From assembly GCA_017504305.1 (NCBI GenBank), contig JAFVRJ010000027.1, positions 4,172 to 68,171 on the forward strand: a stretch of 64,000 nucleotides of DNA, in the 5' to 3' direction. This DNA is from Clostridia bacterium (lineage in GTDB: Bacteria; Bacillota; Clostridia; Christensenellales; DTU072). Positions within the stretch are counted from its first letter, which is position 1, and each line of letters opens with the position of its first letter. The position numbers and the translations under genes are program-made. Shown here in pieces: positions 11,423 through 44,295 of this stretch. The notes beneath the pieces are model-generated. The model worked only from the letters and a program-made list of their open reading frames with translations, did not search any database and was not told where the DNA came from.

Positions 11423-12397
11423 ATGAAAGCCTTGGATTTCAAATGGACAAGCGATATAGGAAGCGCGTTTTTGCTCACCGGTAGCGACGGATACTGGAAG
11501 GATTACGTTATAAACGTAATTATAAATTCTGTTGCGAACGGCGCTTTTGGGTATAATTATCGCGTCTATAATGAACTGAAAAGCATAGAAGAAGCTCTTG
11601 AAGCGTTTAGTTCGGTTGGGTTCTTTGGCGAGAGTAGCATCGTAGTTATTTCTAACTACGGCGTTAAAAAATCAGGTGCTAAATCGGAAGCTAAACTTTC
11701 GGCTAAAGAAGTTGAGCTTTGGCATGAAGTTATTGCTTCGCTTTCCCCCGAGCTAATACTTATCGTAGTTGACTCCAACTTGCCTAAAGAGATTGCTCAA
11801 AATTTTTTTGAAGTGGACTGCAGTAAGCTTGAGGGTGTGGCGCTTAAGGATCACGTTAGCTCTTTAGCTACTCCTAAAAAAATAGAACCGCGTGCTTTGG
11901 ATATACTCATAGAGTACTGCAACCGCGATATGCTTTTGATTGCTAACGAGGTTAAAAAGCTTTCGGCATATGCCGGCGGTAAAAATATTCTGACTGTCGA
12001 GATGGTGGAAACTCTTGTTGCCAACAACATTGAAAACGAAATGTTTGAGTTGTCTAACGCCATCGCGGACAAAAACAAAATTAAAGCTACCAAACTATTC
12101 GATAAATTCGTTTCCAAGGGTATTTCGTACTCGTTGATGCTTGGTATGCTGGTTAATCAATATCGCCGGTTGTTGCATTGTGCCCTTTCTAAAAAGAGCG
12201 ACAACGATCTTGCCGAGTCGCTTGGCATAAAGCCTTATGCTGTCAAACGTAGTCGCGAGACCGCCACGAAGTATGGTAAGGCAACGTTAAAGAGCATTTT
12301 AGACAGTTTGGTCGATGCGGAGTTTGCATTTAAGAGTGGTGTTATGGTGGAAGAAACCGCCGTTAGAACTGCTTTTGCAAAACTGATTTCCAAATAG
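11423..12397 (+). CDS. holA: DNA polymerase III delta subunit
   Basis: 324 aa. The position after comEC and an overall HolA-like pattern (LLTGSD..., C-terminal helical domain) support the call. Confidence 0.7.
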   Translation: MKALDFKWTSDIGSAFLLTGSDGYWKDYVINVIINSVANGAFGYNYRVYNELKSIEEALEAFSSVGFFGESSIVVISNYGVKKSGAKSEAKLSAKEVELWHEVIASLSPELILIVVDSNLPKEIAQNFFEVDCSKLEGVALKDHVSSLATPKKIEPRALDILIEYCNRDMLLIANEVKKLSAYAGGKNILTVEMVETLVANNIENEMFELSNAIADKNKIKATKLFDKFVSKGISYSLMLGMLVNQYRRLLHCALSKKSDNDLAESLGIKPYAVKRSRETATKYGKATLKSILDSLVDAEFAFKSGVMVEETAVRTAFAKLISK

Positions 12398-13208: not shown

Positions 13209-14018
13209 ATGTTGTCGGCATATCAATTTAGTCTTTTGAGCATCGTCGATTTAATAGCTGTAGCAGGTCTTTTGACTGCTGTTGCTATCTTCTTTATTCG
13301 CAAAAAAAGCGTAAAGCTTCTTGCTATATACGCAGTTGCTACGATTGCTTACGTAGCAATCGTCCTTATTGACGAACTGTTTAACGTACCCGTAGCGAGA
13401 GCAGTAGCACAATTATTTATAATTGTAATGAGCATAATCCTTGCTGTCGTATATCAATCGGACTTCAAGGTAGCGTTTTTTAACCTGACCAGAAGTTATG
13501 ATAAAAACGCCTACGTTGATAGCGACCTTTCGGACGAGGAATTGCGTAATGCCGTTGACGAGATAGTTAGAGCATGTCAAACGATGAGTAAAAACCGTAC
13601 CGGCGCTCTTATCGTAATAGCACCTAACTCCATTACTCCCAATATTTTAGAAACCGGCGTTAAGCTCGAAGCCTTTGTAAGTGCAGCGTTGCTTGAGGCT
13701 ATTTTTAACACACGCGCGCCTTTCCACGATGGAGCGGTTATTGTACAAGGCAACAAGGTATTGGCAGCAGGATGCTTCTTACCTTTATCCCAATCACAAG
13801 CGGTTGCTAAAAACCTTGGTACGCGTCACCGCGCGGGCATAGGCGTAACCGAAGTTGCGGGTGACGTACTCACTATTATCGCAAGTGAAGAAACCGGCAT
13901 TATATCAATTGCCCAAGGCGGACAATTAAGACGCTTTGTAACCCCCGATAGACTCCGTGACGAGCTTCATAAGATCCTTAAGATTACTCCCCATACTCGT
14001 AACAGAAACATTAATTAG
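13209..14018 (+). CDS. cdaA: Diadenylate cyclase CdaA (DisA_N/DAC domain)
   Basis: Three N-terminal TM helices, followed by TGALIVI, HDGAVIV, LGTRHRAGIG and SEETGIIS motifs. Confidence 0.9.
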   Translation: MLSAYQFSLLSIVDLIAVAGLLTAVAIFFIRKKSVKLLAIYAVATIAYVAIVLIDELFNVPVARAVAQLFIIVMSIILAVVYQSDFKVAFFNLTRSYDKNAYVDSDLSDEELRNAVDEIVRACQTMSKNRTGALIVIAPNSITPNILETGVKLEAFVSAALLEAIFNTRAPFHDGAVIVQGNKVLAAGCFLPLSQSQAVAKNLGTRHRAGIGVTEVAGDVLTIIASEETGIISIAQGGQLRRFVTPDRLRDELHKILKITPHTRNRNIN

Positions 14019-24810: not shown

Positions 24811-27426
24811 ATGAAAAATAATAAAAAAACAGTTTTATTAGTTATAGCCCTTTCTTTGTGCCTTGCTTGTGTTTTGGCAAGTTGTGGCTTTTTAGGAGGT
24901 GATTCCGACAACGGTGACGGGAGCACTAATTCCTATCGTATTATTTTTGTGGGGACCAGTTTGGAGCCTCTTTACGTTTTAGACGGTCAGATCAATATGC
25001 CCAATAATCCAACCAGCGAAGGCTACGTTTTCGGCGGTTGGTACGTTGACCAAGCATTGACTATTCCCTTTGATCAAGCCTATCTTGATGCGCACCCCTT
25101 AACTTCCGATTTGCGTCTTTATCCCAAATGGGTGGAAAAGGCAACCGGCGCATATACCATTACCCTTAACGTCAATGGTGGTGATCCTCTCGATGAAGAT
25201 ACCATCGAAATCTATAAAGAAATTACCACTCCACAACAACTCCCCATTCCCACCAGAGCCGGATATTCCTTTATTGGATGGTTTGCTTCTCTTACCGGTA
25301 ACGATGCGGTAACCGGTGCCGATGGCTCTATGGTAGATTATCGCGGTAGCTCAACTACCTTCTACGCTAAATGGGTGGCTGCAAAGTACAGCTTAACGTT
25401 AATGTCGAACGACGTTTCGGCAGGTAAAGTATCTGGGGCCGGTGGTGAGTTTGTTTATGGTCAAAAGGTAATAGTCGTTGCTACTTCTTTAGACTCCGCC
25501 AACTATGTCTTTAAGGGTTGGTATGATGGGGAAGAACTCCTTTCCGACAGCCTTACCTACGAAGTTACCATGTATGACAACGTTTCCTTGACTGCAGTTT
25601 GGCAAGGTAAACAACGTTATATCAGATTCTATAACAACCATCTTGAGTCCGATAACACCTACTACGACTATTATTACGCTTATGGATCTGACGTAAGCTA
25701 CGTACCTGCTTTACGCGTTGGTCATAGTTTTGTCGGATGGTACGAAAATCGTGCGGGCGTTGGCTCCATTATCAACGCAAACGGTGTCTTTGACGACTGT
25801 AAATATGTAAACGGCTATGAGCTTTACGCTTGTTGGAGCGAGGGTACCGAGCCTTTAAACTATGAAATTATCGACGGCTATTCCGTTAAGGTTACCGGTA
25901 TCACCGCAAACGCCGGCAGTATAATCCATATTCCGCACGCTTATGACGGCAGAGCCGTCACCACAATAGGAGAGGGTGCTTTTGAAAACGTTAATAAGGC
26001 CGCGATAGTAATTCCTTCGAGTATTACCGCAATCGAGCAAGATGCCTTCAAAGACGTTAAAGCAAAGATTTATTTCGACGTAGGTGCTGATTTGAGTTTG
26101 TTGACGGCAGAGCGTTTTAGTTCTTCATTAGACATATACACCCACGTTACCTTGAAAGCAAATAATCCTCTTGTCGACGACGAGTACGTTGAAGCAGAGG
26201 GTATTTTAGCCGACACGCACGCCAACACGATACCCGAAGCACAAGCATTATTTGGTTATTTGTGGTTATATACCTACACCGAGGCTTTCGATATAGTATT
26301 CGAAGCGGGGGCATATACCGGTAACGACGAAGGGTTTAACGATAGCTTTATCGATTCGGTATTTTCTAACATTGCCAGAAAACTTTCGCTTAAGAGCGAA
26401 ACCCAAAACTATTCTTTACACTACTATCCGTCGGAAAGAAGAGCAAACATTACCTTTAACGCCAAAACGGGCAATTCGATGGCAAGCGCAACGACCGATG
26501 GCGGTAAGATGCAAACGCAATCCCAATCCGTTGTAACCATACCTACAGGCGCTACGCATAACTTTAAAATTGACGAGCTTTCCGATTACGTTGTATACAA
26601 TAGTGAGCAACTTGTTTACGCTGTTGAAAACGGCTATAATCCCGTATTCGGAGCGGATGGCACTACGGCAGAGTCTATTTATAATAAGGCGCGCAACGTA
26701 CTATCTCAAATAATCACCGAAGGCATGTCACCCTTTGAGAAGCTAACCGCAATACACGATTGGCTTGCACTCAACGTTATTTACGATAGCAAGTTACTTA
26801 CAATTGCGACCAATTACCCTGCGAGCGCGGTATCGCACTATCGCGGATTCTACCTCGAAGGCGTATTTGAAGACGGCAAAGCCGTTTGTGATGGTATAAG
26901 CAAGGCGTTTTTGCTCATGGCTCGCATCGAAGGTATCGAGACGATACGCGTTTCCGGCACTATGGGCGGAGTTGGTCACGCTTGGAACAAAGTAAACGTT
27001 GGTGGCACTTGGTATATGGTAGACGTAACCAACGACGATAGCATCATGACGATCTCATCTTTAGGTAAGTCTTTTGAAATACTTAACCACCGCTACTTCC
27101 TTGTAAGCGATGAATCCGTAAGTACAACGCATGATGAAGACGAAATTCATAATGCTCCCGTAGCGACGGGCACTTATAACTATTTCAGCACGGCAAAATA
27201 CGGCGCAACTCACGATTACTATATTGCTTCCCAAGCGGAGTTCAATGATTTATTGTACGTACTTAAAGCACTTGCTTCGCAAACTGGCATATTGTATACG
27301 GTGGACGTAACTTTCGCTCCGTCGGTAAACGTTGAGTCTTTGAGTTATAACGTAATAGCCGGATATAGAGTGTTCTTGAACGATGGCCTTGGTGGCGGAG
27401 TATATTTACTTGGAGTGTTTAAATAA
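24811..27426 (+). CDS. Multidomain lipoprotein: Listeria-Bacteroides (Flg_new) repeats, BspA-type LRR and a C-terminal transglutaminase-like cysteine protease core
   Basis: Lipobox LASCG. Repeats GYVFGGWY, GYSFIGWF, FKGWYDG and HSFVGWYEN. LRR-like IPHAYDGRAVTTIGEGAFEN and IPSSITAIEQDAFKD. Transglutaminase motifs GKAVCDGISKAF...GHAWNKV...YMVDVTNDD (Cys-His-Asp). Confidence 0.65.
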   Translation: MKNNKKTVLLVIALSLCLACVLASCGFLGGDSDNGDGSTNSYRIIFVGTSLEPLYVLDGQINMPNNPTSEGYVFGGWYVDQALTIPFDQAYLDAHPLTSDLRLYPKWVEKATGAYTITLNVNGGDPLDEDTIEIYKEITTPQQLPIPTRAGYSFIGWFASLTGNDAVTGADGSMVDYRGSSTTFYAKWVAAKYSLTLMSNDVSAGKVSGAGGEFVYGQKVIVVATSLDSANYVFKGWYDGEELLSDSLTYEVTMYDNVSLTAVWQGKQRYIRFYNNHLESDNTYYDYYYAYGSDVSYVPALRVGHSFVGWYENRAGVGSIINANGVFDDCKYVNGYELYACWSEGTEPLNYEIIDGYSVKVTGITANAGSIIHIPHAYDGRAVTTIGEGAFENVNKAAIVIPSSITAIEQDAFKDVKAKIYFDVGADLSLLTAERFSSSLDIYTHVTLKANNPLVDDEYVEAEGILADTHANTIPEAQALFGYLWLYTYTEAFDIVFEAGAYTGNDEGFNDSFIDSVFSNIARKLSLKSETQNYSLHYYPSERRANITFNAKTGNSMASATTDGGKMQTQSQSVVTIPTGATHNFKIDELSDYVVYNSEQLVYAVENGYNPVFGADGTTAESIYNKARNVLSQIITEGMSPFEKLTAIHDWLALNVIYDSKLLTIATNYPASAVSHYRGFYLEGVFEDGKAVCDGISKAFLLMARIEGIETIRVSGTMGGVGHAWNKVNVGGTWYMVDVTNDDSIMTISSLGKSFEILNHRYFLVSDESVSTTHDEDEIHNAPVATGTYNYFSTAKYGATHDYYIASQAEFNDLLYVLKALASQTGILYTVDVTFAPSVNVESLSYNVIAGYRVFLNDGLGGGVYLLGVFK

Positions 27427-27433
27427 AGGCACG

Positions 27434-28867
27434 ATGTTACAACCTAACCAAACTATTGAACTCAATATTCATGATTTGGGCATGGAAGGCGAAGGGATAG
27501 GCCGATACGAGGGATATACCTTTTTCGTGCCGTACGCATTGCCGGGCGAGCGGATAAAGGCGAAAATAACCCATCTCAAGCGCAATAAAAATATTGGTTT
27601 TGCCGATCTTAAAGAGATTATAGAGCCCTCGGAGTATCGAGTAAAAACACCTTGCAACCGATTTGGCAGATGTGGTGGATGTACTTTGATGCATCTTGAG
27701 TACGCAAAGCAACTTGAGTACAAAAAGAAGAACGTCGAAAACGTTCTTCGCAAAAACGCGCAGTACGTAGGTGATGTTAACGACGTAGTACCATCCTCAC
27801 CATTTGCCTACCGCAATAAAGCGCAATTACCGTTTGGTACGGTCAACGGTAAGGTAGCGGTTGGCTTCTATGGTGCTGGAACTCATAAGATTGTGTCGTC
27901 CACGAAGTGTTTTTTGCATGGAGAGTGGCTTGAAAAACTTATTAAAATCACACTGGAATTTGCAAACGAAAAGGGGTTGACCGCATATGACGAGCAGACT
28001 AAAAAAGGATTGCTTCGTCATCTGGTGGCGCGTTACGTGGGCGGACAAATGGTTGTAACTATCGTTATTAACGGCGCAAAGCTTGATGGCGCAAACGAGC
28101 TTGCGGATAGGTTGGAAAAGGAATTTAACGGGGTAGCGGTATATCTATCGCCAAACACGCGCGATACCAACGTCATTATGGGTAGCACGTTAATACCCGT
28201 TAAGCCCACGCCACAATCGATAACGGTTATGGGCATAACCATAGACGTAAATCCATTTTCCTTCTTCCAAGTTAACGATGAAATCCGCGAAAAACTTTAT
28301 AAAGCAGTAATCGATAAGGTAGCCCCCGACAAAGATACTGTGGTGGTGGATGCTTACGCCGGAGTAGGCCTTCTTGGCGCAATAATGGCAAAGAGGGGCG
28401 CAAAGGTGTTCAACGTTGAGATTGTTAAGGAAGCTATAGACGATGCAGAAAAGCTTTATAAAGCAAATGGTATTGCAAGTAGTGTGGTAAATATATGTGG
28501 TGATGCAAGCATAGAGCTTAAAAAGCTTATATCGGCACCTGAAAACGACGAAAGCGCACCCCAATATAGTAAATTCCAACAATGTATCGCATCAGGTAAA
28601 AAAGTAAAAATCATCCTTGACCCTCCGCGTAAGGGTATCTCTAAAGAGGTTGCCGATACTCTTAACGAGCTATCAAAATCATTGGCGTTTGACCTAATTT
28701 ATATTTCGTGCAACCCAGCAACGCTATCAAGGGATATTGCTAATCTGACTATGTTTACTCCCATAGAGGTAATGCCTTTTGATATGTTTCCTCATACAAG
28801 TCACGTCGAGTCCGTCGTGTGTTTCACACGTCGGCTCGACAATGAATTGCGCGAGCGCATGAATTGA
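27434..28867 (+). CDS. RumA/RlmD-type 23S rRNA (uracil-C5)-methyltransferase (TRAM domain, Fe-S cluster, SAM MTase)
   Basis: TRAM-like N-terminus, Cys cluster CNRFGRCGGCTLMH, VDAYAGVG SAM motif and DPPRKG. The last ~9 codons (DNELRERMN*) are encoded by the ATGAATTG repeat array. ATG 27434 is preferred over 27383. Confidence 0.85.
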   Translation: MLQPNQTIELNIHDLGMEGEGIGRYEGYTFFVPYALPGERIKAKITHLKRNKNIGFADLKEIIEPSEYRVKTPCNRFGRCGGCTLMHLEYAKQLEYKKKNVENVLRKNAQYVGDVNDVVPSSPFAYRNKAQLPFGTVNGKVAVGFYGAGTHKIVSSTKCFLHGEWLEKLIKITLEFANEKGLTAYDEQTKKGLLRHLVARYVGGQMVVTIVINGAKLDGANELADRLEKEFNGVAVYLSPNTRDTNVIMGSTLIPVKPTPQSITVMGITIDVNPFSFFQVNDEIREKLYKAVIDKVAPDKDTVVVDAYAGVGLLGAIMAKRGAKVFNVEIVKEAIDDAEKLYKANGIASSVVNICGDASIELKKLISAPENDESAPQYSKFQQCIASGKKVKIILDPPRKGISKEVADTLNELSKSLAFDLIYISCNPATLSRDIANLTMFTPIEVMPFDMFPHTSHVESVVCFTRRLDNELRERMN

Positions 28868-28945
28868 GTGCGTTGCACTCATGAATTGGCTTCGCCATGA
28901 ATTGCGCCTGCGGGCGCATAAGGTAGGACGCGCAATTCAATTCAT
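28842..28945 (+). repeat. Octamer-plus-hairpin array at the left edge of the NERD cassette
   Basis: ATGAATTG occurs at 28842, 28859, 28881 and 28897, and the inverted copy CAATTCAT at 28938-28945. Each direct copy is followed by a short GC-rich palindrome: GCGCGAGCGC, GAGTGCgttGCACTC, GGCttcGCC and GCGCCtgcGGGCGC. Confidence 0.85.
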
Positions 28946-28971
28946 GAATAGAAATAGAACAGGAGTATTTA

Positions 28972-29685
28972 ATGAATTTGCTAAAAAAGATAATAAAAAG
29001 CGCCTTTAAACCAATTATCAATAAAGCAAAAGGCGCAATAGGAGAGCAAAGAGTTTCTGCTAAATTAAACCCCCTGCTTTTTGGAAAGGTTGAACACAGG
29101 CAAATCAATAATTTAGTTTTAATAGATGAAAATGGGAAAAGCCACCAAATAGACCATATAGAAATACGTCAAAATGGAATATTTTGTATTGAAACAAAAA
29201 ATTACTCAGGGTGGATTTTCGGAAATGAAGAACAGCAAATGTGGACACAGACATTTTATAATGAAAAGCATCAATTCTTAAATCCCATAAGGCAAAATCG
29301 TTCTCATATCTATCATATAAGCAAAATTCTTGGCGGAAAATATAAAATTAACTCTGTTATTGTTATGGTTCAAAATAATGCTGATAGAATAAATGTACCG
29401 TATGTTGTTAATTTAAATTGCCTAAAGTCATACCTTTCATCCTTCTACGACGGAACTCATTATTCGATATTGGAAATGGATTATATATATCGAGAATTGC
29501 TTTCTGCTTCGCGGTGTGATATAACAAGCAGAGAACATATTGAAAATATAAAAATTACACAGAACGAGATTCAAAATAATATATGCCCCCGTTGTAAAGG
29601 CAAGCTAATTTTAAAAAAAGGAAAATACGGCAATTTCTATGGCTGTAGCAATTATCCTAATTGCAAATTCACAAAGAAACTATAG
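28972..29685 (+). CDS. NERD domain protein with C-terminal topoisomerase-type C4 zinc ribbon
   Basis: NERD core GAIGEQRV...HQIDHIEIRQNGIFCIETKNYSGWIFG...NPIRQNRSH, with C-terminal CPRCKGKL...YGCSNYPNCKF. The gene looks AT-richer than its flanks. AGGAG RBS. Confidence 0.85.
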   Translation: MNLLKKIIKSAFKPIINKAKGAIGEQRVSAKLNPLLFGKVEHRQINNLVLIDENGKSHQIDHIEIRQNGIFCIETKNYSGWIFGNEEQQMWTQTFYNEKHQFLNPIRQNRSHIYHISKILGGKYKINSVIVMVQNNADRINVPYVVNLNCLKSYLSSFYDGTHYSILEMDYIYRELLSASRCDITSREHIENIKITQNEIQNNICPRCKGKLILKKGKYGNFYGCSNYPNCKFTKKL

Positions 29686-29712
29686 CTTTTGAGACCTTTT
29701 GGAGTCTTGACC

Positions 29713-29758
29713 CACGTCGAAACGCTTGTTTGTTTTGCAAGAAAGTAAACCGCAAAAA
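29713..29758 (+). pseudogene. Orphan copy of the rRNA methyltransferase 3' end (HVETLVCFARK*)
   Basis: CAC GTC GAA ACG CTT GTT TGT TTT GCA AGA AAG TAA parallels the in-gene sequence CAC GTC GAG TCC GTC GTG TGT TTC ACA CGT CGG (HVESVVCFTRR) at 28802-28834. Confidence 0.7.
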
Positions 29759-29791
29759 GTTCATTTAGAGCAGTTTAGGAATAATATAGAC

Positions 29792-31444
29792 ATGAAAAAT
29801 TTATTTAAAACAATAATTATAATGTTTTCAGTTACCGCCGTGGCTACGTCGCTAATGGTACTTGCTTCTTGCGGTGGCTCGCGTTGTGGCGATTATAGCC
29901 ACTCTTTGACGGGGGCAGTGCTTGAAGTTGATGAATTTCAGCATTCTCAAAAGTGCGAAAAATGCAAAGAGGTCGTTAAGATGTATCACGATTATTACGA
30001 CGTAGTTGTAACAAGAGAAGCAACAAAGGAAGCGGATGGCGAAGGATATCAAACTTGTAAGGTATGCAATTATCGTAAAGAGGTGGTAGTGCCTTATTGC
30101 ACCCATACATACGAAAAGGTTGTAGGAAGGTTAGGTAATTGTTGCTCCACTGGTAATATAGAGCACTACAAATGTCCAAATTGCGAAAAGTTGTTTGATG
30201 AAGACCATAATTTGCTTACTTTAGAAGAAGTAACAACCGATTTTGGCTCACACTCTTTTTATGATAGAGATTGTTTCATATTTAAGCCGAGTGCAACGGG
30301 CAAGGGGTTTGTTAAAATCCGTTGCGATAGGATAGAGGAGTGCGGAGCATATCTAACTAACGACGGTGAAGTCGTGCAGTTTGATTTGCCTAAACTTAGC
30401 GACACGCAGTACTATGAAACGGTCGGCCCAAATGAAGAGGGTATTATCACTTATAGACTAACGGGAGATTACGCAAAAAGTGAAGCAACGCTTAAAGCAC
30501 CAAGCAACCAAAGGTATTTGGTCGAATCTATATTGAGAGGCCTAAAACTGGAATACGATGCTTGCTTGCAAGGTCATGACTTTGACCCTACCTCTTATGA
30601 GGTAATAGACAACAACTTACATTACGTTTGTAAAAGAAACGAAGAGCACAAGCTGGCAATCAAACTACCAGATTTAGAGGACGGTAACTATATAAAATCT
30701 ACCGTTAAAGCAACTTGCACAAAGAGCGGTGGCACAAACTACTCCCTTACCCAAAACGAGTGGAATACTATTCTCAACAAATACGAAGACGAGCTTGTAA
30801 ATGAGAGCTACAGTTTGGGAGCATACTCAAAGCATCTTGCATTGTACTATACCGTTTTTGTCGAATCGGGTGGTATTGATAAGAATAATCATTCGGTAGC
30901 ATCAATAGTAACAGGACAATTTGTAGCGCCTACTTTTGACGTAAAAACCTCAAAGAGCACGGATGGGTCCATTAAGTGTCAATGTGCCGATTGTGATGCC
31001 GTTTGGGTTGAGTCCGTTAAGTATGATGACGGCGATTGGAGCATGACGGGCAGTAACATGTTCAACAGAAAGTACGTAAGGAGTTACGTAATTTACGGCA
31101 CGACCTATAAAGCTCCCGCGCAAGAAAAGTTTAACTACTACGTTGATATGAACGGTGGTGAAGCGGTAGATGATAAGGTCGAAATTGAAGGCGCATCAAG
31201 TGGTGGTCACGTTTACATTAGCAAGGTAGACTACAAGAAGACAGGATATAGTATTCGTGGCGTGGAGATTTACGTTGACGGAAAGACGGTGAGCATTATC
31301 GAAAAAGACAGAAGGGTGGAAGAAGGTGATTCCTATAGCCTTATTGTAGGTGATTACCACTATTGGAAAGTATTCATCGGTTACAATAGTTCTTTAGACG
31401 ACGTTTTCTTGGGCGAAGTAAAGATTAAGATATTGTGGTACTAA
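29792..31444 (+). CDS. Cysteine-rich lipoprotein of unknown function
   Basis: Lipobox LASCGG follows a signal peptide starting at ATG 29792. Several CxxC/HxxxC pairs are present (CEKCKE, CKVCNY, CPNCEK, CQCADCD). No family recognised. Confidence 0.55.
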   Translation: MKNLFKTIIIMFSVTAVATSLMVLASCGGSRCGDYSHSLTGAVLEVDEFQHSQKCEKCKEVVKMYHDYYDVVVTREATKEADGEGYQTCKVCNYRKEVVVPYCTHTYEKVVGRLGNCCSTGNIEHYKCPNCEKLFDEDHNLLTLEEVTTDFGSHSFYDRDCFIFKPSATGKGFVKIRCDRIEECGAYLTNDGEVVQFDLPKLSDTQYYETVGPNEEGIITYRLTGDYAKSEATLKAPSNQRYLVESILRGLKLEYDACLQGHDFDPTSYEVIDNNLHYVCKRNEEHKLAIKLPDLEDGNYIKSTVKATCTKSGGTNYSLTQNEWNTILNKYEDELVNESYSLGAYSKHLALYYTVFVESGGIDKNNHSVASIVTGQFVAPTFDVKTSKSTDGSIKCQCADCDAVWVESVKYDDGDWSMTGSNMFNRKYVRSYVIYGTTYKAPAQEKFNYYVDMNGGEAVDDKVEIEGASSGGHVYISKVDYKKTGYSIRGVEIYVDGKTVSIIEKDRRVEEGDSYSLIVGDYHYWKVFIGYNSSLDDVFLGEVKIKILWY

Positions 31445-36555: not shown

Positions 36556-39500
36556 TTAGAACTTCAGATGATGCGGTCTCTTCTTGCGCTTTCTCGGTGA
36601 GAAGAAGGAGGGGAAGAAGGTAAAGAATATAATCAGCACGATGGCGATTATTAAGCCGATCTTGATGTATCCGCCCTTGAATTCGCCTACAAAGCCAATA
36701 CCTTCGAGGTCACCTGCGTTTTCGAGGGTGATTATGCCGTTTACCACTGCAAGATCTTTTACGCGGTATTTGCCCTTTTCCTTAACGACTACTTTTACGC
36801 TTTCCTTATCGGCATAAGCGGAGGGAACTTTGATTTGCATTACGCTATCGTCGCTTAATACGTCGTCGCCGTTAATATCGATTTCATAACCGATAACAAC
36901 GCGCTCGAGGGCGGTAAGGAGTCCGCTAATGGTGCTATTGGATTGCATCTTTTCGAGCTTGATGGTGGAGTCGGGGTGGAATCCGTTGTCAGACTCGATC
37001 ATGACGGAAAGATCTTCGCTTTGATGCTCGATGGTGAGTGAATAAATGGTTATGGTAACCATAACGGGGTCTGGCTCGGAATAGGTATCGGTAGCGTCTG
37101 CACGCAAGGTTACGATATATAGTCCGGGGCTTACGAAGGAGTTTTCGACCTCGTTTGAACCGAGATAGTATTTTATTTCTGCGCCACTTGAGCAAGTTGC
37201 TTCGATCACGTAAGCATTGCCGTTGTATACGAAGGATACGTCCGTATTGTCGACGCGGATTTTTGAGGGGTTACCGTAAATGCGGTAGGTAGCGGTGGTA
37301 ACCACCAAAGTATAGCACTCGTTGGTGCAAGTTGCATCGAGAGTATAGAAGCCTGCGATAGTACCTTCTTCTTTTGTGATTACGATGCCAACGTCCTCGT
37401 TATTGACTATGCTACCAGCGGTAATTGTGTAAGCGCTTTGGTCAACGATTATGGCTTCGCCGATAGTGGAGTATTGATCTTTAAGCGTTATGAAAATCTT
37501 ACGTTGAACGATAGTATAGGTACCGGGTGTGAACTCGATTGTGTAGTTATCGTTGTGGAGCGTTCCGATTAAGATGTCGTATCCACCGGGAACGGAGCCC
37601 GCTTCGCGTTCGAGAGAGCCTTCCAATTGCTCTTGACCAATTAGTGGAGTGGTGTCGTCAACAATGGGAGTAAGGGTGGCTTCGGGATCGCCGTATGCTA
37701 CGCTAACGTCTTGGGCGGTAACCTTAATGAAGTACGGTGAAATCGTGTAATTAAACGTGCCGTCTGCAAGCTTTACGTCATAGTTAGGATTGAGCTCGTT
37801 AAGGGTTCCGATGCTAATCGCATACTCACCTACGTTCGTGCCGTCAGCGCGTGCTAACTTACCGTCTAATTCACTTTCCGTAAAGGCGAGTGCGGTATTG
37901 GTATAGGTGATATCTGCATCTACAGAGCCGTATACGTGACCGACTCCGCTATCGGGGGTGACGATAACTTCTTTAGGAAGGATAGTGCAGTAAGCATCAT
38001 CGAGTTTTACAGAGTAGTTATCGTTATTCGAGCTTGCGAGGGAGATGGGATAGTCATTAACGTCTTCGCCAATTTCTCTTTGTAAAACGACTTCGAGCTC
38101 TACGTTGGGGATGCCGGTAGCAAGACTATATCCATACTTAATAGAGTAAGTAATAGTGCCGTCCTCATCGCCGTAGTTCTTTGTGAATCCAACGGGAACA
38201 ATGTAGATTTCGCGAGCAGTAACGGTATATTTTGCGCTAACGAAAGTAATGTTGTAGTTGGGGTTAAGCTCATTGGTAACGGTACCTTGTAATATGTTGT
38301 ATTCACCTGCGTCCGTACCTTCTTCGCGAGCGAGGTAACCGTTAAGTGATTCGTTACCAACCAAACCCACTACGTCAAAGCCCAATTCGTTTTGTTCTTC
38401 ACCAAAGATTTGGCTATCAGCTTTTGCGGTAACGGTGATATCTTTAGGAAGAATCTCGTATTTATCAACACCTGCACCATCCGCAATAGTGAACTCGTAG
38501 TTCGAGTTGAAAGCATATACGGTCAGTAAATCGTACAAGCCTTTTATCGTACCGGATTCGCGAGTGTAGTAAACGGTTACAACGTCATCGTGGAAGCCCG
38601 TTTCGATATCTTCAACAAGAAGTATTTCGTTTTCACCATAGGTGTTAACAAACTTTTTGGGAGTTACGGCATAAGGTCTAACGTTAATTGTGAATTTGCC
38701 GATTCCGCTATCCGTGGTCATGCTTGCGGTATAGTTTGCGCTATCGGTAATAACGTCTACAAAGTCGATAACAGTGCCGGCGTTTTCATTGGAAACGGCG
38801 TCTCTTAAGAAGATTACGTTGAGGGTTTCGCCGTTTAGTCCGTTTACCTCTTGCTTAAACTCGGGATCGTGGTCGCCGTAAAGTTTGCTATAAGCGTTGG
38901 GCGTTACGTCGCCGATATAATAGGGAGTAATCTTCAACTTAACGAGTATGGATGCTTCGTTATAGTTGGTCGTTTGGGCGGCGGTAAGGATGACGTCGTA
39001 GTATTCGCCGTCCGCTTTAACGTCTTTATAGCTTGCGTTTGCTTCAGCGGTCGTTTCGTTGTGGTTGAGGAGCGCCGTAGCGGTTTGGGAATTTGCATTG
39101 TAGATTAGCTCTAAATAGTGTGTGCCGTCAATAACGTTTGTGTTAACGGGCGTTATAACCGTATTAGCGCGGTTTATGACGTATTTTACACCCGTGGTGA
39201 AGGAAATATCGTAATTGAGGTTATTGGCGCTTGTGAGCGTTCCTGCAGTGATTTCGTAAGAGCCTGCAGTGCCGTCTTGATTACACTCGAGCGCACCGGA
39301 TAGGGGATATCCGCTAACGATAGCGTTACCCGTGGTGCCGGCACCGCCACTTACTTTGTAGTTAAGAGCTTGTTCGGCATCACCATAGGTGATAATCACT
39401 GCAACGGGAGTTATAGTTATGGGACGCTCGGTGATTACGTAATTAGCGCCAACGTAAGTGATATCGTAGTTAGCATTAGCTAACGTACCTTGGCTAATGG

Positions 39501-42500
39501 CGTAAGTGCCGACTATTTCGCCTACACCCCTTACGAGAGAGCCGGATAAAGTATCGTTGTTAACAATGCCTGCCGTGGTATATGAAAGCTCTTTTTCCGT
39601 TTCACCGAATACTTGAGTTTTACTATCGGCAGTAATCGTTAAGGGACGGGCTTCAAGAGTATACTTTCCGTTAACAAGAGTGATAGCATAGTTGCTGTTT
39701 TCAGCGTTGATTACGATATCGTAAGAGCCAACGCTCGAGTATTTTGTAACGGTAGAAGTAAAGGTTACGTTAAAGTCGTCGCCTGTTTTTTCGTTGCCAT
39801 CGGTGGAATAACCGAAATCCAATAAATCATCGCCGTATACGCTTGATTTATTTTTGGCGGTAATTGTTAAGGGACGAGGGGTAATATGATAGTAGTTGGT
39901 GTTAACTTTAACGGTATATTCGCCTGCATCGTAGTTTGCGGTAATTGAATAATCACCAACAACGTCACCGCTGTCACGAGAGAGTTGAACGTTAAGAGAA
40001 TCGATATTATCGCCATCTGCAAATACGCCTTGGTGAGTAAAGGTGAGTGCAACTGCTTCGTTGCCGTAAACTTGAGTTTTTTCCTCAATGCTTATAACTA
40101 TTATGCTTTCACCAATCGTATAAGTGCCTTCTACAAAAATAACTTCATAGTTCTCATTGGCACAAGTACCGGTGATATCATAGTCGCCTTTGGGCGAAGT
40201 TGAAGTCGCGGTGGTGGTTAAGGTTATTTCAAGGTCATCTTGGTTATAGATTTCACCTGCGGTAACGCGACCCGTTAACGTTTCGAGGCTAATACCATAG
40301 TTAGAAGCTTTATTATCAATGGTATAAGTAATGGGGGCAGGGGTGATGACGTAGCTACCTTTATTAAACGTAACATCGTAGTTTAGGTTACTATAGGTTG
40401 CGTTTGCGTTGGTCAAAATATAATCACCCGCATTTACGGGCATATTAACGTACGCGATATTAAGAACGCTTATAGGTTCGTCGTATGCCATTGCGTATCC
40501 ATCGGCAAGAGTAGGAGCGGGAGGTACAATAGCCAAGCCGTATTGACTTTCGCTGGAATTTAGATTTACGGTAATGGCTTTCTGGTTTACGGTGTAAGAG
40601 CCGTTTAAGAAGGTTACGTTGTAGTTAGCGTTATTAAAGCTTGCATCCGTTGCCTCAAGGACGTAAGTGCCTTGGTCTTTATTTGCATTTTGAGGTACGG
40701 TGATATTAAGTAGGTTAATATCTTCGCCATAGGCCATGCTAAAGCCGTCCGCAAGATCATAACCAATGGTTTGGAAAGGATCACCGTATGTTGAGCTACC
40801 ACTTCCAATTTGGATTGTAATCGCTTTAGCGCTAATCGTGTAAGTGCCGTTTTTTATGGTTACGTCGTAATTTGCGCTATTGCTGGTGCCGGTGATGTCG
40901 TAAGTACCAAAGCCCAAGCCGTCCTGCTTCGTAAGCGTTACGTCAAGGTCGGATTCATCATCGCCTGTAACTAAAGCTCCGTCAGTTATGGTTATAGTTA
41001 GGGGAGCAAACGCTTCGCCGTAAACAGAAGTCTTATCAGCAGCTTTTACGGTAATAGGCTTTTTAGTAATTGTATAAGTGCCCTTTGCCGTTGAGGCGTT
41101 GGTAACGTTGTAGTTCGTGCCGTCGCCGTTGTATGTTTTGACGGTAATATCATAAGTGTCAACGCCATAAGTGTCAACGCCTAAACCATCTGACGTTTGT
41201 AGCTCGATAGTGCCGAGGTCTGCAATAGTATTGCCGTTTACAAGATTGTTTGCAGTAAACGTTAGGGGTACAATGCTTTCGCCGTAAACGGAGGTCTTAT
41301 CAGCAATAGTAATCGTAACATCTCTCTTGGTGATAGTATAAGCACCGGTCGTTTTGGTGCCGTCTTCACTTGTAAAGCTTACGTCGTAATTAGTGCTTGT
41401 ACTTGTGCCGTTGATGTTGTACGTGCCAACGTTAGCCGTATTGGAAGCAATAGTAGTAAGACTAATTGCAAGAGCGCTTACTTCGTCTTTAACACCATCT
41501 ATGGTTGCGAGATCGTCGGGGTCATAAGTAAAGGTAAGTGACTCGATAACGTTGCCGTAAACAGAAGTCTTATCATCAACCGTTACGGTAATATGCTTTT
41601 GAGAAATGGTATAAATACCGGTATTGCTTGCGGTTACTACGTAGTTATTTGCCTTTAAGGACTTAGCAGTAATTCCGTAAGTGTCAACAGTATAGCCGGC
41701 GTCCCTTGCTAAAACAGCGGTTATTACGTCGATTGTATCGCCGTTAACAAGCTCGGTGGAGGATATGGTGAGTTGTGCATCATCTTGACCATAAACGTGG
41801 CCTGCATTGTTGATGGTGACGCTTATTGGGCGTTGATTGATTTTGTAAATGCCATTTGCTACGGTTATATCGTAGTTAGCACTCGTTGCGGAACCGGTTA
41901 TGTCGTAATCGGCAACGTTAGAAGTGTTAGTGGCAGTGGTGGTAAGTGTTACTTTGAGAACGGCTTCAGTATCGGTGTCACCATTTACAAGTGCGCCATT
42001 AGGGATCGTATAGGTCAGGGAAACTATATCATCGCCGTAGTCGGAAGATTTATTAACCGCATATATGGTAATCGCCTTTTTTGCGATGGTGTATGTGCCG
42101 GTCGTTTTGGTGCCGTCTTTACTTGTAAAGCTTACGGCGTAATTAGTGCTTGTACTTGAGCCGTTGATGTTGTACGTGCCAACGTTAGCCGTATTGGAAG
42201 CAATAGTAGTAAGACTAATTGCAAGAACGCTTACTTCGTCTTTGACACCATCTATGGTTGCAAGATCGTCGGGGTCATAAGTAAAGGTAAGTGGCTCGAT
42301 AACGTTGCCGTAAACAGAAGTCTTATCATCAACCGTTACGGTAACGGCTTTCTTCTCGATAACAAAATTGGTAGCTTGTAAGATTACGTTGTAGTTGGGG
42401 TTGGCAATAGTACCGAGGTTAAATGCATAATTTGCTACGGCTTCACCACTTGCTCTTTGGAAAGCTCCACTCAAAGCATCGCCATCGTATAAAGTACCAC

Positions 42501-44295
42501 TTGTTACGTTGTACGCACTAAAAACGGGGTCAACGTCGCCGTAGGTCTTTTGGACGTTGGTCGGCTCGACGGTCAAACTTGCTTGATTTACCGTAAAGGT
42601 TATACGTTCGCTATTTAAGGTGACGTAGAAGGGGTTTCCGGTTGTAAACAGGTTGTAATTTACGTTGACCGTGTTGCAGTACATCAAAGCCAAATTATAT
42701 TCGTCAAGAGTGGTTACAAGTTCTGCGGTATAGGTGCCGGCTTGTAGTCTTGCGTTTGAGTAATCATCGTTCCAACTTTCGTAAACAATATTGCCGTTTG
42801 CATTACGTATACGTACGGAAGCATTTTCGAAGCTGTTTGCGCGGTTTGTAGATGTAGATCCCGCCCAATAACCTACGCCACAGGTTGCTAAATTAGAATT
42901 AAGGCTTAAATCGGTATTTACGGAATTATTAGTATTATCGCGGATAGAAGCGACAATATCTTCAAGGTCGATATCGGAACTATAAGTATAAGTTGTGTTC
43001 GCAACGTGGATGGTAGCAATTTTACCAATTCTAACGTTAGCGAAAACGTTGGAAGTCGGTTCTGATTCTGATTTGTTGATTTTAAATAGAACGTCTACGC
43101 CGGCGCCAATATCCGATTTAGTACCGATAAATACAATACCGTCAGCACTACCGCCGGTTGCAAAAAGTTGGGTGTTTCCGTTATAACCGACGTGGCCGAT
43201 AACGTAATCGTCATTGCCGATGCTTGCCGAGAAACGTCCCTTTAAAACCAATATATCTTCGTTATTGGGATCAAAGCAAACTCTATCGACGTAAGCGTTA
43301 GCATTTGTAAACGTTACGCCATTATAGTTATTTGCCACCATAGTGCGGTAGACTTCTACCGTATTGGTAACGGTCGCACCGGTTGTAGTGGTGGTTCCGC
43401 TAAGCCCTTGGTTTTGAACGGAAGCATCGTTGTTATGCGACGTTCTGTTATCAAAATAATATAATTTATCAACGTTACAACTATTCCCGGCAGAAACAAT
43501 ATTTTTTGTTGTAGTTACGGAATATGGACCTGCTTCAAAAGTGCCCGTGAACCCCCAAACAAGGTCTTTACAATCAACGGTAGAGCCTAAATTATCGCCG
43601 ATGAAGCCACCTACTCGCACGGAAGTGGTGTCGGTCGTCTCGCTAAGACTTGAAGACGCTTTACCGCTTCCAAAAATAGAGCAACGCTCAAATAAAGTGT
43701 GCGTGGAACTAAATGAAGCAACACCAACAAACAAACCGAGGTTAGCATTGCCGCCGTAGTTCATGTTGCGTTGTAAACCATGTCCTACGCTGGAATTGTA
43801 TGCATCCATGATAAGAGTACAATCCGTTATTGAAGAAGTACCGGTAACCCTTCCAACAACACCACCCATGCCATCATGAGTTTTAGTGATTGCGTGGTAT
43901 CTTATACAAGAGCCGGCTTCATAAGTGATAGTACAATTATATAATGAAGCACCGCCTTCCATAAGACCGACGACTCCCCCAAAGCTACATGGGGACGTGT
44001 TGTTATAGTTACTATCTCCCCAATAATTTGTGTTTGAAGCAAACGCAACGTTGAGGTTTTTGATTGTACCGCCACTTAATACGTCGACGATCATTCCGGT
44101 GTTAAGTCGGTCGCCGGTTGTCATGCGCGTCCAGCTGGTGTCAATGGGATTAAGCTTTATGGTATGACCATTTCCATCTAAAACACCGCTAAACGTTACT
44201 TGACCATGAGTTCCAACAACGGGATACCAACCGTTTGATGCCGTAATATCGTTTGCAAGATAGTATTCACAGATACGGAATGAGCAGAACTTGAA
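36556..44295 (-). CDS. Giant surface protein, C-terminal frame (GLUG motifs, more than 20 MBG/YGX-type repeats, C-terminal TM anchor)
   Basis: The frame is open from 44295. The 57 codons upstream of the ORF-track ATG read EYYLANDITASNGWYPVVGTHGQVTFSGVLDGNGHTIKL, which is typical of GLUG-region modules. Repeats follow the pattern ...YG(D/E)...L(T/S)(Y/F)T...G(D/N)...G(T/E)Y.I...NY.V. The tail is IGLIIAIVLIIFFTFF...RKRKKR. Confidence 0.8.
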   Translation of the reverse strand, partial: FKFCSFRICEYYLANDITASNGWYPVVGTHGQVTFSGVLDGNGHTIKLNPIDTSWTRMTTGDRLNTGMIVDVLSGGTIKNLNVAFASNTNYWGDSNYNNTSPCSFGGVVGLMEGGASLYNCTITYEAGSCIRYHAITKTHDGMGGVVGRVTGTSSITDCTLIMDAYNSSVGHGLQRNMNYGGNANLGLFVGVASFSSTHTLFERCSIFGSGKASSSLSETTDTTSVRVGGFIGDNLGSTVDCKDLVWGFTGTFEAGPYSVTTTKNIVSAGNSCNVDKLYYFDNRTSHNNDASVQNQGLSGTTTTTGATVTNTVEVYRTMVANNYNGVTFTNANAYVDRVCFDPNNEDILVLKGRFSASIGNDDYVIGHVGYNGNTQLFATGGSADGIVFIGTKSDIGAGVDVLFKINKSESEPTSNVFANVRIGKIATIHVANTTYTYSSDIDLEDIVASIRDNTNNSVNTDLSLNSNLATCGVGYWAGSTSTNRANSFENASVRIRNANGNIVYESWNDDYSNARLQAGTYTAELVTTLDEYNLALMYCNTVNVNYNLFTTGNPFYVTLNSERITFTVNQASLTVEPTNVQKTYGDVDPVFSAYNVTSGTLYDGDALSGAFQRASGEAVANYAFNLGTIANPNYNVILQATNFVIEKKAVTVTVDDKTSVYGNVIEPLTFTYDPDDLATIDGVKDEVSVLAISLTTIASNTANVGTYNINGSSTSTNYAVSFTSKDGTKTTGTYTIAKKAITIYAVNKSSDYGDDIVSLTYTIPNGALVNGDTDTEAVLKVTLTTTATNTSNVADYDITGSATSANYDITVANGIYKINQRPISVTINNAGHVYGQDDAQLTISSTELVNGDTIDVITAVLARDAGYTVDTYGITAKSLKANNYVVTASNTGIYTISQKHITVTVDDKTSVYGNVIESLTFTYDPDDLATIDGVKDEVSALAISLTTIASNTANVGTYNINGTSTSTNYDVSFTSEDGTKTTGAYTITKRDVTITIADKTSVYGESIVPLTFTANNLVNGNTIADLGTIELQTSDGLGVDTYGVDTYDITVKTYNGDGTNYNVTNASTAKGTYTITKKPITVKAADKTSVYGEAFAPLTITITDGALVTGDDESDLDVTLTKQDGLGFGTYDITGTSNSANYDVTIKNGTYTISAKAITIQIGSGSSTYGDPFQTIGYDLADGFSMAYGEDINLLNITVPQNANKDQGTYVLEATDASFNNANYNVTFLNGSYTVNQKAITVNLNSSESQYGLAIVPPAPTLADGYAMAYDEPISVLNIAYVNMPVNAGDYILTNANATYSNLNYDVTFNKGSYVITPAPITYTIDNKASNYGISLETLTGRVTAGEIYNQDDLEITLTTTATSTSPKGDYDITGTCANENYEVIFVEGTYTIGESIIVISIEEKTQVYGNEAVALTFTHQGVFADGDNIDSLNVQLSRDSGDVVGDYSITANYDAGEYTVKVNTNYYHITPRPLTITAKNKSSVYGDDLLDFGYSTDGNEKTGDDFNVTFTSTVTKYSSVGSYDIVINAENSNYAITLVNGKYTLEARPLTITADSKTQVFGETEKELSYTTAGIVNNDTLSGSLVRGVGEIVGTYAISQGTLANANYDITYVGANYVITERPITITPVAVIITYGDAEQALNYKVSGGAGTTGNAIVSGYPLSGALECNQDGTAGSYEITAGTLTSANNLNYDISFTTGVKYVINRANTVITPVNTNVIDGTHYLELIYNANSQTATALLNHNETTAEANASYKDVKADGEYYDVILTAAQTTNYNEASILVKLKITPYYIGDVTPNAYSKLYGDHDPEFKQEVNGLNGETLNVIFLRDAVSNENAGTVIDFVDVITDSANYTASMTTDSGIGKFTINVRPYAVTPKKFVNTYGENEILLVEDIETGFHDDVVTVYYTRESGTIKGLYDLLTVYAFNSNYEFTIADGAGVDKYEILPKDITVTAKADSQIFGEEQNELGFDVVGLVGNESLNGYLAREEGTDAGEYNILQGTVTNELNPNYNITFVSAKYTVTAREIYIVPVGFTKNYGDEDGTITYSIKYGYSLATGIPNVELEVVLQREIGEDVNDYPISLASSNNDNYSVKLDDAYCTILPKEVIVTPDSGVGHVYGSVDADITYTNTALAFTESELDGKLARADGTNVGEYAISIGTLNELNPNYDVKLADGTFNYTISPYFIKVTAQDVSVAYGDPEATLTPIVDDTTPLIGQEQLEGSLEREAGSVPGGYDILIGTLHNDNYTIEFTPGTYTIVQRKIFITLKDQYSTIGEAIIVDQSAYTITAGSIVNNEDVGIVITKEEGTIAGFYTLDATCTNECYTLVVTTATYRIYGNPSKIRVDNTDVSFVYNGNAYVIEATCSSGAEIKYYLGSNEVENSFVSPGLYIVTLRADATDTYSEPDPVMVTITIYSLTIEHQSEDLSVMIESDNGFHPDSTIKLEKMQSNSTISGLLTALERVVIGYEIDINGDDVLSDDSVMQIKVPSAYADKESVKVVVKEKGKYRVKDLAVVNGIITLENAGDLEGIGFVGEFKGGYIKIGLIIAIVLIIFFTFFPSFFSPRKRKKRPHHLKF

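Follow-up and report, generated by a model that had tools for sequence, protein, structure and literature searches.

The 64,000-nucleotide stretch analysed here (the window), from contig JAFVRJ010000027.1 of a Clostridia bacterium, contains rlmD, a RumA-type methyltransferase gene whose 3' end occurs twice, once within the gene and once, in diverged form, behind a single NERD-domain gene. We consider it probable that positions 28802-29720 are a small non-autonomous, site-specifically integrated element, which occupies an attB-like (attachment-site-like) position at the His-Val-Glu codons of rlmD/rumA and whose cargo is exchangeable. Judged from the sequences compared, it looks like one allele in a cassette family that is widespread, lacks an integrase and has defined ends at the HVE site of rumA. 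Specifically, both element ends are community-wide repeats in gut metagenomes, bounded exactly by an 8-bp core. The features of the locus are as follows, each with its basis in brackets.

27434..28867, + strand: rlmD, RumA-type 23S rRNA (uracil-C5) methyltransferase gene (TIGR00479; Pfam TRAM and tRNA_U5-meth_tr)
28802..28809, + strand: the 8-bp core at the left end, CACGTCGA (codons for His-Val-Glu), where host and element meet (contig depth jump; joints in other species)
28805..28840, + strand: hairpin H0 (read directly from the sequence)
28841..28946, + strand: array of four short GC-rich hairpins and an inverted linker (linker repeats; covariance model)
28947..29686, + strand: single-copy cargo module, a ribosome-binding site and a gene for a NERD protein with a Topo-type zinc ribbon (Pfam; depth; GC)
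29687..29712, + strand: right-end arm of the element, TTTTGAGACCTTTTGGAGTCTTGACC (contig depth; conservation in L343, a contig of a different organism, and in conspecific alleles)
29713..29720, + strand: the 8-bp core at the right end, CACGTCGA (high copy number stops at 29719-29721, and the sequences beyond differ between contigs)
29721..29748, + strand: displaced native rlmD 3' end (..TLVCFARK and stop), now untranslated (form of the native ends of relatives)

Two diverged copies of the rlmD 3' end flank the NERD gene

RlmD matches TIGR00479 over the whole protein (273.5 bits vs a cut-off of 183.55), contains the domains PF01938 (TRAM) and PF05958 (U5-methyltransferase), and has the C-terminal ..DMFPxTxHVE motif at 28775-28810. 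Its longest open reading frame (ORF) is 27383-28867; the true start is probably 27434, judging by the conspecific protein P0121, which begins MLQPNQ at the corresponding position. The 17 extra codons at 27383-27433 overlap the upstream gene and are probably spurious, and conspecific RlmD products are 477 aa long. The C-terminus reads HVESVVCFTRRLDNELRERMN (in a longer stretch, ...DMFPHTSHVESVVCFTRRLDNELRERMN) followed by the stop codon, and the codons past HVE (28811-28867) come from the inserted element.

Copy A of the 3' end lies within rlmD at 28802-28834, and copy B lies at 29713-29745 with a TAA at 29746-29748. Copy B (29713-29748) is an orphan, which reads HVETLVCFARK and a stop and is part of no long ORF. 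A sequence-only reading of this DNA had described two such diverged copies around the NERD gene, about 22 of 33 nt identical by eye and in agreement at the protein level. Both copies are present where it placed them; the measured identity is 21 of 33 nt, and the protein-level agreement stands, with 7 of 11 amino acids identical. By codon position, the copies agree at 10 of 11 second positions and at 5 of 11 third positions. Additionally, six-frame translation of the window yields the motif HVE[ST][VLI]VC[FL][TAS][RK][RKQ] twice, and none of 300 shuffles contains it.

Native rlmD ends in relatives follow the form HVE[ST][VLI]VC.x[RK][KRQ] and a stop, which the displaced end fits, and in all conspecific contigs this displaced end directly precedes a lipoprotein gene (ATG at 29792 in the window). 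Two ORFs of 35 and 572 aa that overlap copy B were rejected as spurious, the lipoprotein beginning at ATG 29792 like the conspecific 550-aa products. The longest ORF of the lipoprotein opens at a TTG within the orphan rlmD end and so gains 22 codons (29726-29791) that are probably spurious.

The element ends are community-wide repeats bounded by the core

Logan contigs of eight gut metagenomes from several studies were mapped on the locus, contig depth being a crude measure. Depth is flat at 3-20 except in two blocks, 28802-28946 and 29687-29720, both bounded by CACGTCGA, and on both of these end blocks contigs pile up 10-70x. In metagenome X1, depth on the left side is 19.5 up to 28775, 109 at 28794-28802, 670-690 from 28803, 181 at 28938-28946 and 9 from 28947, and on the right side it is 9 up to 29684, about 450 at 29695-29714, 136 at 29720-29724 and 14 from 29735. 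The NERD module between the blocks (28947-29686) is single copy, with a depth of 9-10 vs 450-690 in the ends, and the right-end arm reaches 450-650 vs 9-14 in its neighbours. In X4 the depth jumps from 58 to 232 at the left core, and X4, X5, X6, X8 and X9 show a pattern like that of X1. In animal-gut metagenomes, few short sequences around this locus are repeated as often as these ends.

All four att-like joint types occur in public data. In the joint of host and left end, rlmD genes with other upstream sequence (...PVDMFPGTGH, ...TPYDLFPMTG) enter the same left end at 28802-28805. In the joint of right end and host, the right end is followed by various native-type ends, for example HVESVVCLTRK and a stop, and also in L343. 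In the joint of right end and left end, small predicted ORFs extend from the right end across core and hairpin into the array; P0275, with the array type of the window itself, ends ...RPFGVLTHVESVVCLTRRIDNELRERMN, P0285 ends ...RRLDNELPMA, and P0273, P0276, P0278 and P0284 enter GTGAAGTT-type arrays. In metagenome X2, one contig joins 29721 back to 28839 via a variant hairpin, and matching loose ends are found elsewhere. The joint of host with host, an ordinary gene with a native end and no array, occurs in most relatives.

The left end re-encodes the end of RlmD in a hairpin

Hairpin H0 consists of a left arm GTCGAGTCCGTCGTGTG (28805-28821), a loop TTT and a right arm CACACGTCGGCTCGAC (28825-28840). 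Its left arm re-encodes (V)ESVVC, and its right arm yields the odd RlmD tail TRRLD. Because depth is high from 28803, the left arm, which encodes SVVC, belongs to the element, and because it is element-borne it "co-varies" with its partner arm. In other alleles the arms differ and match internally: L005, L001, L002, L255, L309 and L343 each have their own version, and the hairpin of L007 is a perfect 17 bp, GTTGAATCTGTCGTTTG/CAAACGACAGATTCAAC. The claim that the element carries a surrogate 3' end for its target gene is therefore borne out, both by the depth jump at 28802/28803 and by the rlmD genes of other species that join the same sequence. A right arm copied from host codons (fold-back or P-nucleotide-like) was also entertained and dropped, as depth shows the hairpin except its core to be element-borne.

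The tails KRQIQQ, RRFDN, RRLDNEL and RKQ recur in RlmD proteins of only 48-80% mutual identity, because they are the reverse complement of the HVExVVC codons, that is, the second arm of the hairpin. Variable RlmD C-terminal tails in databases (KRQIQQ, RRFDN, RRLDNEL and others) can be explained in this way as read-through into an element hairpin. Assemblies break at these element ends. A metagenome contig, L014, breaks exactly at the rlmD hairpin apex (7590-7600) and continues into unrelated GC-rich DNA; we rejected it as a large insertion, since with its break at the apex it is probably a chimeric assembly at a palindrome.

The left end contains a truncated Gut-1-like hairpin array

The array has direct linkers (A/C)ATGAATTG at 28841, 28858, 28880 and 28896 and one inverted linker CAATTCATG at 28938-28946. 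The word CATGAATTG occurs four times within it and nowhere else in 64 kb, vs 0.5 occurrences expected. A custom covariance model of four hairpins, R1, built from eight arrays of other loci, matches the window at 28839-28926 (64.4 bits, E 2e-14), its sole match in 64 kb, and RNAalifold on eight related arrays detects compensatory changes in 6 of 16 pairs. With one copy only in 64 kb, the array was rejected as a genome-wide repeat of the repetitive extragenic palindromic (REP) kind.

By sequence comparison, the window array appears to correspond to the first half, in truncated form, of a Gut-1-like element that has two halves. Over 28839-28946 it is the same as in the sister-species contig L345, and there the array goes on into a second half and a gene of the Pfam family 23S_rRNA_IVP (hereafter IVP). 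Full arrays (L009, L297, L345, L020 and L055) have direct linkers in the first half and the inverted linker in the second, and the linker pairs co-vary between the halves: ATGAATTG with CAATTCAT, TCGATATG with CATATCGA, and GTGAAGTT with AACTTCAC.

On the same footing, the hairpin array appears to be a relative of the orphan Rfam motif Gut-1 (RF01706). Gut-1 was found in human-gut metagenomes only and described as a candidate small RNA (sRNA) of unknown function in 2010 (Weinberg et al. 2010, PMC2864571); its consensus is CAaUGAAAU-hairpin-GUGAAAU-hairpin-GUGAAAU-hairpin-UGAAAU. The same arrangement in two halves is seen in the published seed sequences, with four occurrences of GUGAUAUU followed by four of AAUAUCAC, and the Gut-1 architecture of at least three short covarying hairpins with one constant linker is present in the window array. 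When arrays were compared by cmscan with RF01706 (gathering score 50 bits), related arrays overall scored 24-38.5 bits, with 38.5 bits for L037 (E 1.8e-4), 31-32 bits for L055, L218 and L020, and 30.0 bits (E 0.04) for the conspecific L009 and L013. No array reaches the 50-bit gathering score, the truncated array of the window has no RF01706 match at E<10, and the window has no Rfam match at gathering score.

A linker-independent array detector was applied to about 1 Mb around rlmD in 80 other species among the matches listed, which did not include the window's own species. It found four arrays among the matches listed, three of which begin at the rlmD stop: L255, whose RlmD is 74% identical; L309, from Ca. 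Fimenecus; and L297. In L297, RlmD is only 36% identical; what follows its rlmD stop is the same array, with ATGAATTG linkers, and an IVP gene that shares the Pfam family and by eye has an almost identical N-terminus. Loose three-linker pattern scans of metagenome and viral contigs gave true arrays at 4 of 240 loci, the rest being noise.

A two-half array lies directly before an IVP gene at five independent loci with three linker types (L005 3424-3601, L009 11458-11640, L345 11377-11560, L297 4643-4815 and L335 3150-3340), and by contig annotation an IVP gene is next after an rlmD with the RRFDN tail in the contig of P0084. The IVP genes after arrays encode four-helix-bundle proteins of 114-117 aa (PF05635 23S_rRNA_IVP); the L009 copy matches TIGR02436, a family that includes Avd of diversity-generating retroelements (DGRs). 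Array and IVP gene look like one conserved unit. Mutagenic homing of the DGR kind, considered on account of the Avd-like IVP gene, was rejected because the differences between copies are not adenine-specific and no reverse transcriptase is present.

In the IMG/VR phage contig L218, ATGAATTG-type arrays with a direct and an inverted half fill gaps that flank the terminase large subunit and portal genes (176-433, 2822-3083 and 4508-4767). The array was rejected as a mimic of the rRNA substrate of RlmD, as arrays also occur in phage intergenic gaps and elsewhere. Its role could be that of a recombination site, of an RNA processing or insulating element, or both.

The right end is a conserved arm outside any long ORF

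The right-end arm resembles a decayed rlmD segment (RPFGVLT) and is present in all conspecific alleles, whichever cargo they carry. The sequence-only reading was right about an inserted segment, and its extent needs correction: the 26 conserved nt upstream of the orphan (29687-29712) belong to the element, not to the host. The arm and the core, followed elsewhere by variable native-type ends, have the structure of an attR, in agreement with the earlier view of the downstream copy as an insertion product. Direct repeats of the rlmD end downstream, sought with blastn-short at 12 loci, were found in L343 only.

The translation of the right end in its two open frames is in no protein of more than 100 aa among 5.8 billion clusters. 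The right end as the 3' end of a serine integrase gene was accordingly rejected, the search with the two open frames having given only spurious ORFs of 40-97 aa. Neither the right nor the left end has an exact match in IMG/VR, and the right-end segment has no blastn match in the phage or plasmid collections. Residues 1 to ~40 of P0280 (from an ENA contig of 3229 nt) are those of a cytidine/deoxycytidylate deaminase-type protein, and the right-end arm and HVESVVCLERK follow directly, so that the right end of that genome adjoins a truncated gene.

The cargo of the window allele encodes a nuclease-like NERD protein

The NERD ORF (28972-29685) encodes 237 aa with matches to PF08378 (97.7 bits, gathering 22.1) and to PF01396 Zn_ribbon_Top1 (55.7 bits, gathering 32). 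Its GC content is 29-33% vs 42-46% in the flanks, and this difference (~30% vs ~44%) argues for a foreign origin. The triad D61...E74-x-K76 is invariant in 26 homologues. A fold search with the AF2 model (pLDDT 87.9) returned weak PD-(D/E)xK matches, namely AF1548, the R.BspD6I small subunit, the R2 restriction-like endonuclease (RLE) domain, Can2 and RecU/Hjc, none of them significant (best E 1.3e-3). On this modelling, the cargo protein appears nuclease-like.

The family comprises more than 100 clusters at 62-93% identity, all of ~237 aa, and matches phrog_21557; in PADLOC it gives weak matches only, to the NERD domains of PglW and MkoA. One identical NERD protein, P0178, occurs in two unrelated contexts, after a tRNA-array-IVP series in L335 and after a serpin gene in L338, and L335 holds a tandem unit of array, IVP, NERD gene and relic. 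In both contigs (L335 3040-3130 and 3150-4870; L338 2830-3860), P0178 is followed by diverged relics resembling the rlmD end and by a terminator with compensatory stem changes, and rlmD is not adjacent. In L002, the cargo at the rlmD-linked array includes an ATPase of the OLD/AriA/GajA kind. The + strand of the window has no sigma-70-like promoter or intrinsic terminator between rlmD and the lipoprotein gene; the NERD gene is therefore probably transcribed together with rlmD, by read-through of the array.

Cargo varies within the species and the ends spread between species

The RlmD 90% cluster has 14 members with at least six C-terminal tails: RRLDNELRERMN, KRQIQQ, RKQ, RRLDVDMRR, RRLDNELQPCSC... 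and one broken form. In conspecific contigs the flanks are constant, with an 871-aa surface protein and rlmD on one side and the genes for the 550-aa lipoprotein, APH and a YbaK-like protein on the other, and every allele keeps the orphan rlmD end before the lipoprotein gene. Between these flanks lie the NERD gene (the window and L007/L008), a gene for a 116-aa 23S_rRNA_IVP four-helix-bundle protein (L005/L006), or an IVP gene and a 146-aa gene (L009-L012), and hairpin, array and cargo types are shuffled among the contigs. Wherever the ends are seen, they flank small inserts of 0.2-2.5 kb. The segment is not one unit: since its left end and that of L345 do not differ over 28839-28946, the NERD module (28947-29686) would have taken the place of part of an earlier cassette.

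The X1 data suggest that strains with different cargo coexist in one sample. Over 28000-30500, word-depth in X1 is 19.5 on the rlmD side, 9.25 over the NERD gene and 14.2 on the lipoprotein side, and a 68-nt contig departs from the array at 28946 into an IVP-type second half.

In two syntenic sister-species contigs (L345/L346, RlmD 74% identical), the hairpin, array, IVP gene and lipoprotein gene are present and the orphan end is absent. What L343 and the window have in common is limited to the NERD gene (82.6% nt identity) and the right end, whose 35 nt up to the core are identical; the NERD homologue in front of this right end is 79% identical, and the L343 sequence past the core is different. 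L343 also has a second RumA-type gene (445 aa, DQVE for HVE) with a young insertion at 4590-4830, made up of a hairpin TGTTTGGCT-GACGAAGT-AGCCAAACA and a GC-rich stretch of ~150 nt; on both sides the 3' end of the gene is present as a perfect 43-nt direct repeat, and the native LVWLSRK and stop are displaced. Second HVE motifs in L317/L318 were rejected as relics, as they belong to full-length second RumA paralogues.

Proposed movement in trans and the alternatives

The attL of ICESluvan, an integrative and conjugative element (ICE) with a serine recombinase, reads CACGTGGAGTGCGTAGTGTT in rumA. Window positions 28802-28821 agree by eye with this 20-mer at 16 of 20 positions and carry the same HVE(C)VV codons, and the core thus appears to be the rumA HVE codon site that ICESluvan uses; the sequence-only reading had rightly named the 3' end of rumA as a known integration site. 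The Glu of the RumA HVE is the catalytic base, which would explain why the HVE codons are conserved in every host.

Taken together, these findings support the insertion model, and we infer that the cassettes would be moved in trans. In the mechanism that we propose, the left end would consist of the core, a hairpin re-encoding the last conserved residues, so that RlmD stays intact, and the Gut-1-like array, while the right end would be the 26-nt arm and the core, with exchangeable cargo in between. The family would have one composite site of right arm, core, hairpin and array; core recombination with rlmD would split this site into two junctions and displace the native end. Cassettes would enter and leave via core recombination; the enzyme for it would be encoded elsewhere, and the most plausible candidate is a large serine recombinase specific to rumA, from an ICE or an integrative and mobilizable element (IME). 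Resident cargo would also be swapped by homologous recombination between shared ends, and in the window allele the NERD module may have replaced the second half of the array together with the four-helix-bundle gene.

Several observations weigh against this proposal. No recombinase, integrase or transposase is found in the cassette or the 64-kb window among 45 ORFs scanned, as the sequence-only reading had noted, and no recombinase is found in the annotated flanks of conspecific or related contigs. An empty site, which that reading had expected in relatives, is absent from 14 conspecific rlmD variants and two sister species, and the corresponding skip joint (28801 to 29721, ...AGTCACGTCGAAACGCTTG...) is absent from the eight metagenomes, searched as assembled contigs, which hide rare forms; native-type ends appear only in more distant relatives. 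The assembled contigs hold no proven excised circle, and every joint of right end and left end could stem from cassettes in tandem instead of a circle. In the sister species L345, a left end and cargo are present and a right end is absent. As the right end lies in no long ORF, it is unlike that of the streptococcal rumA ICEs, which lies in the integrase gene. Arrays also occur away from rlmD, beside a tRNA gene before IVP and NERD genes in L335, after an ordinary terminator in L055, and in L218. Finally, conspecific rlmD 3' regions differ over variable-length tracts upstream of the core (VMPFDMF vs ITPYDMF, for example, and ~120 residues in P0132), which is a signature of homologous recombination and not of a site-specific enzyme. 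From these tracts and the shuffling of hairpin, array and cargo, it follows that homologous recombination also acts on the locus.

A less probable alternative, which we would still give some weight, is that the cassette is a dead remnant. A large rumA ICE, IME or prophage would have lost its interior, leaving two att ends and a passenger, now immobile and subject to ordinary recombination only. Serine-recombinase ICEs integrate at exactly these codons and decayed ICEs (dICEs) are common, the locus lacks a recombinase, L345 is already without a right end, and the tandem degenerate right-end copies resemble scars. A remnant does not readily account for ends that are tens of times commoner than any single cargo and flank inserts of 0.2-2.5 kb, for an identical NERD cassette in two contexts, or for the same array and IVP family at the rlmD of a species with 36%-identical RlmD. 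It is further opposed by the lack of a long ORF over the right end, in contrast to the rumA ICEs with their attR within the integrase gene, and by the empty searches of IMG/VR and of the phage and plasmid collections.

Still less likely is a hot spot that works by homologous recombination only, in the manner of the Neisseria minimal mobile elements, with swaps via the rlmD 3' sequence and the relic or lipoprotein gene and no dedicated enzyme or site. The variable rlmD tracts and the shuffled modules fit it, as do a 7-nt repeat, CTATAGC, at a likely deletion joint and the ComEC competence gene in the window. It is at odds with sharp copy-number boundaries at the 8-bp core in metagenomes of many species, with the same ends on unrelated flanks (L343; the rlmD of other species) and with the existence of joints that run from right end through core to left end.

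We regard it as very unlikely that NERD is a homing-type nuclease, cleaving the HVE site of cassette-free rlmD so that repair of the cut spreads the NERD gene. The conserved PD-(D/E)xK triad D61/E74/K76, a fold weakly similar to site-specific nicking domains (R2 RLE domain, R.BspD6I), and a highly conserved, widespread family with identical copies in different contexts would suit such a role; the ends, however, are far commoner than NERD and flank other cargo without a nuclease, and the fold matches are not significant. That HVETLVCFARK and its stop are a chance match, with no insertion at all, can be dismissed: short as the stretch is, the motif is absent from 300 shuffles, the stretch is conserved in all conspecific contigs and L343, and in many metagenome contigs rlmD-type ends come after the same arm.

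Returning to movement in trans, a bolder version of it seems to us rather doubtful. In this version, the hairpin and array would be a folded, structure-recognised recombination site like attC, the HVE codons of rlmD would act as attI, and with a trans recombinase they would form an unrecognised cassette platform of gut Clostridia that stacks and exchanges cassettes of 1-2 genes (NERD, IVP, OLD/AriA-like ATPases); Gut-1 would then be a mobile-element end, not an sRNA.

Neighbouring genes

The window also contains genes with a ComEC-type competence channel (9891-11387), DNA polymerase III delta (11423-12397) and a DisA-type diadenylate cyclase domain (13209-14018). The ComEC gene is a hint of possible DNA uptake and homologous exchange in this organism. 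A 2522-aa ORF at 36556-44124 on the - strand corresponds to conspecific products of 3267-3304 aa with MBG_2 domains and points to a giant surface protein. Further large secreted repeat proteins are encoded at 24811-27426 (Flg_new/transglutaminase) and at 56956-59673 (Big_2).

Comparison with known systems

Insertion at the 3' end of rumA by large ICEs that bring their own serine integrase is known. What appears new is that the same codons host cassettes of 0.2-2.5 kb whose ends are conserved, whose cargo is interchangeable and which bring no enzyme, and that the left end contains a Gut-1-like hairpin array. If mobilised in trans, such cassettes would offer a cheap route for moving single genes, including nuclease- or defence-like ones, between Clostridia, and would amount to a cassette system in a phylum in which, to our knowledge, integrons have not been found.

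The serine-recombinase ICEs of rumA (ICESluvan; the streptococcal Tn1549-, Tn5252- and vanG-type elements; C. difficile CTn5) resemble the cassette in the His-Val-Glu target codons, in short direct repeats at both ends and in the replacement of RumA C-terminal codons by element sequence. In streptococcal rumA ICEs the flanking repeats are 2-21 bp long, and the 3' parts of rumA and the integrase gene are exchanged. The window shows the HVE insertion with direct repeats (28802 and 29713), but neither a serine recombinase at the right end nor a conjugation or mobilisation module, NERD being the only gene between the ends. The cassette thus differs in lacking integrase, conjugation and mobilisation genes, in its size (0.9 kb vs tens of kb) and in a right end outside any integrase gene. 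Its surrogate end keeps the rlmD frame and conserved residues, whereas streptococcal ICEs shift the frame, and its left end has a hairpin and a Gut-1-like array. Searches of IMG/VR and of the phage and plasmid collections identified no cognate ICE or IME with matching att sites.

Cis-mobilizable elements (CIMEs) are att-flanked DNA without recombination or transfer genes. The cassette is similar in having DNA between att-like sites without such genes and in composite internal joints, as expected from the tandem accretion of elements at att sites. It differs in that many cargo types of 1-2 genes share the same ends, which speaks for a cassette platform rather than a decayed ICE. In the Neisseria minimal mobile elements and the promoter-early stem-loop (PeSL) cassettes of T4-type phages, different whole-gene cassettes lie between the same conserved flanks with repeated structured intergenic modules at the shuffling points, and both rely on homologous recombination; the joints described here, by contrast, fall at one 8-bp core and link unrelated flanks.

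With integron cassettes, the elements share single, apparently promoterless genes, structured, sequence-variable palindromic sites and the stacking of units at a single place in the chromosome. The domain pair itself, NERD and a topoisomerase-type C4 zinc finger, is also encoded by cassette 11 of the Vibrio rotiferianus DAT722 integron. On the other hand, no IntI-type integrase is present in 64 kb, the site lies inside a protein-coding gene, and the structured element is 5' of the cargo, consisting of a 17-bp hairpin, a linker/hairpin array and a separate 26-nt arm instead of an attC with R''/L''-L'/R' boxes.

The array is comparable to Gut-1 in its tandem short covarying hairpins, its constant purine-rich linker (GUGAAAU in Gut-1), its occurrence in gut metagenomes and its inverted second half. 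It differs in the linker, which here is AUGAAUUG, and in scores below 50 bits; Gut-1 was moreover described as a free-standing sRNA, without a link to rlmD or mobile DNA. Gut-1-like arrays begin exactly at the rlmD stop in several distant species, often before a four-helix-bundle (Avd-like) gene, and the rlmD locus would be the first genomic context for the Gut-1 motif.

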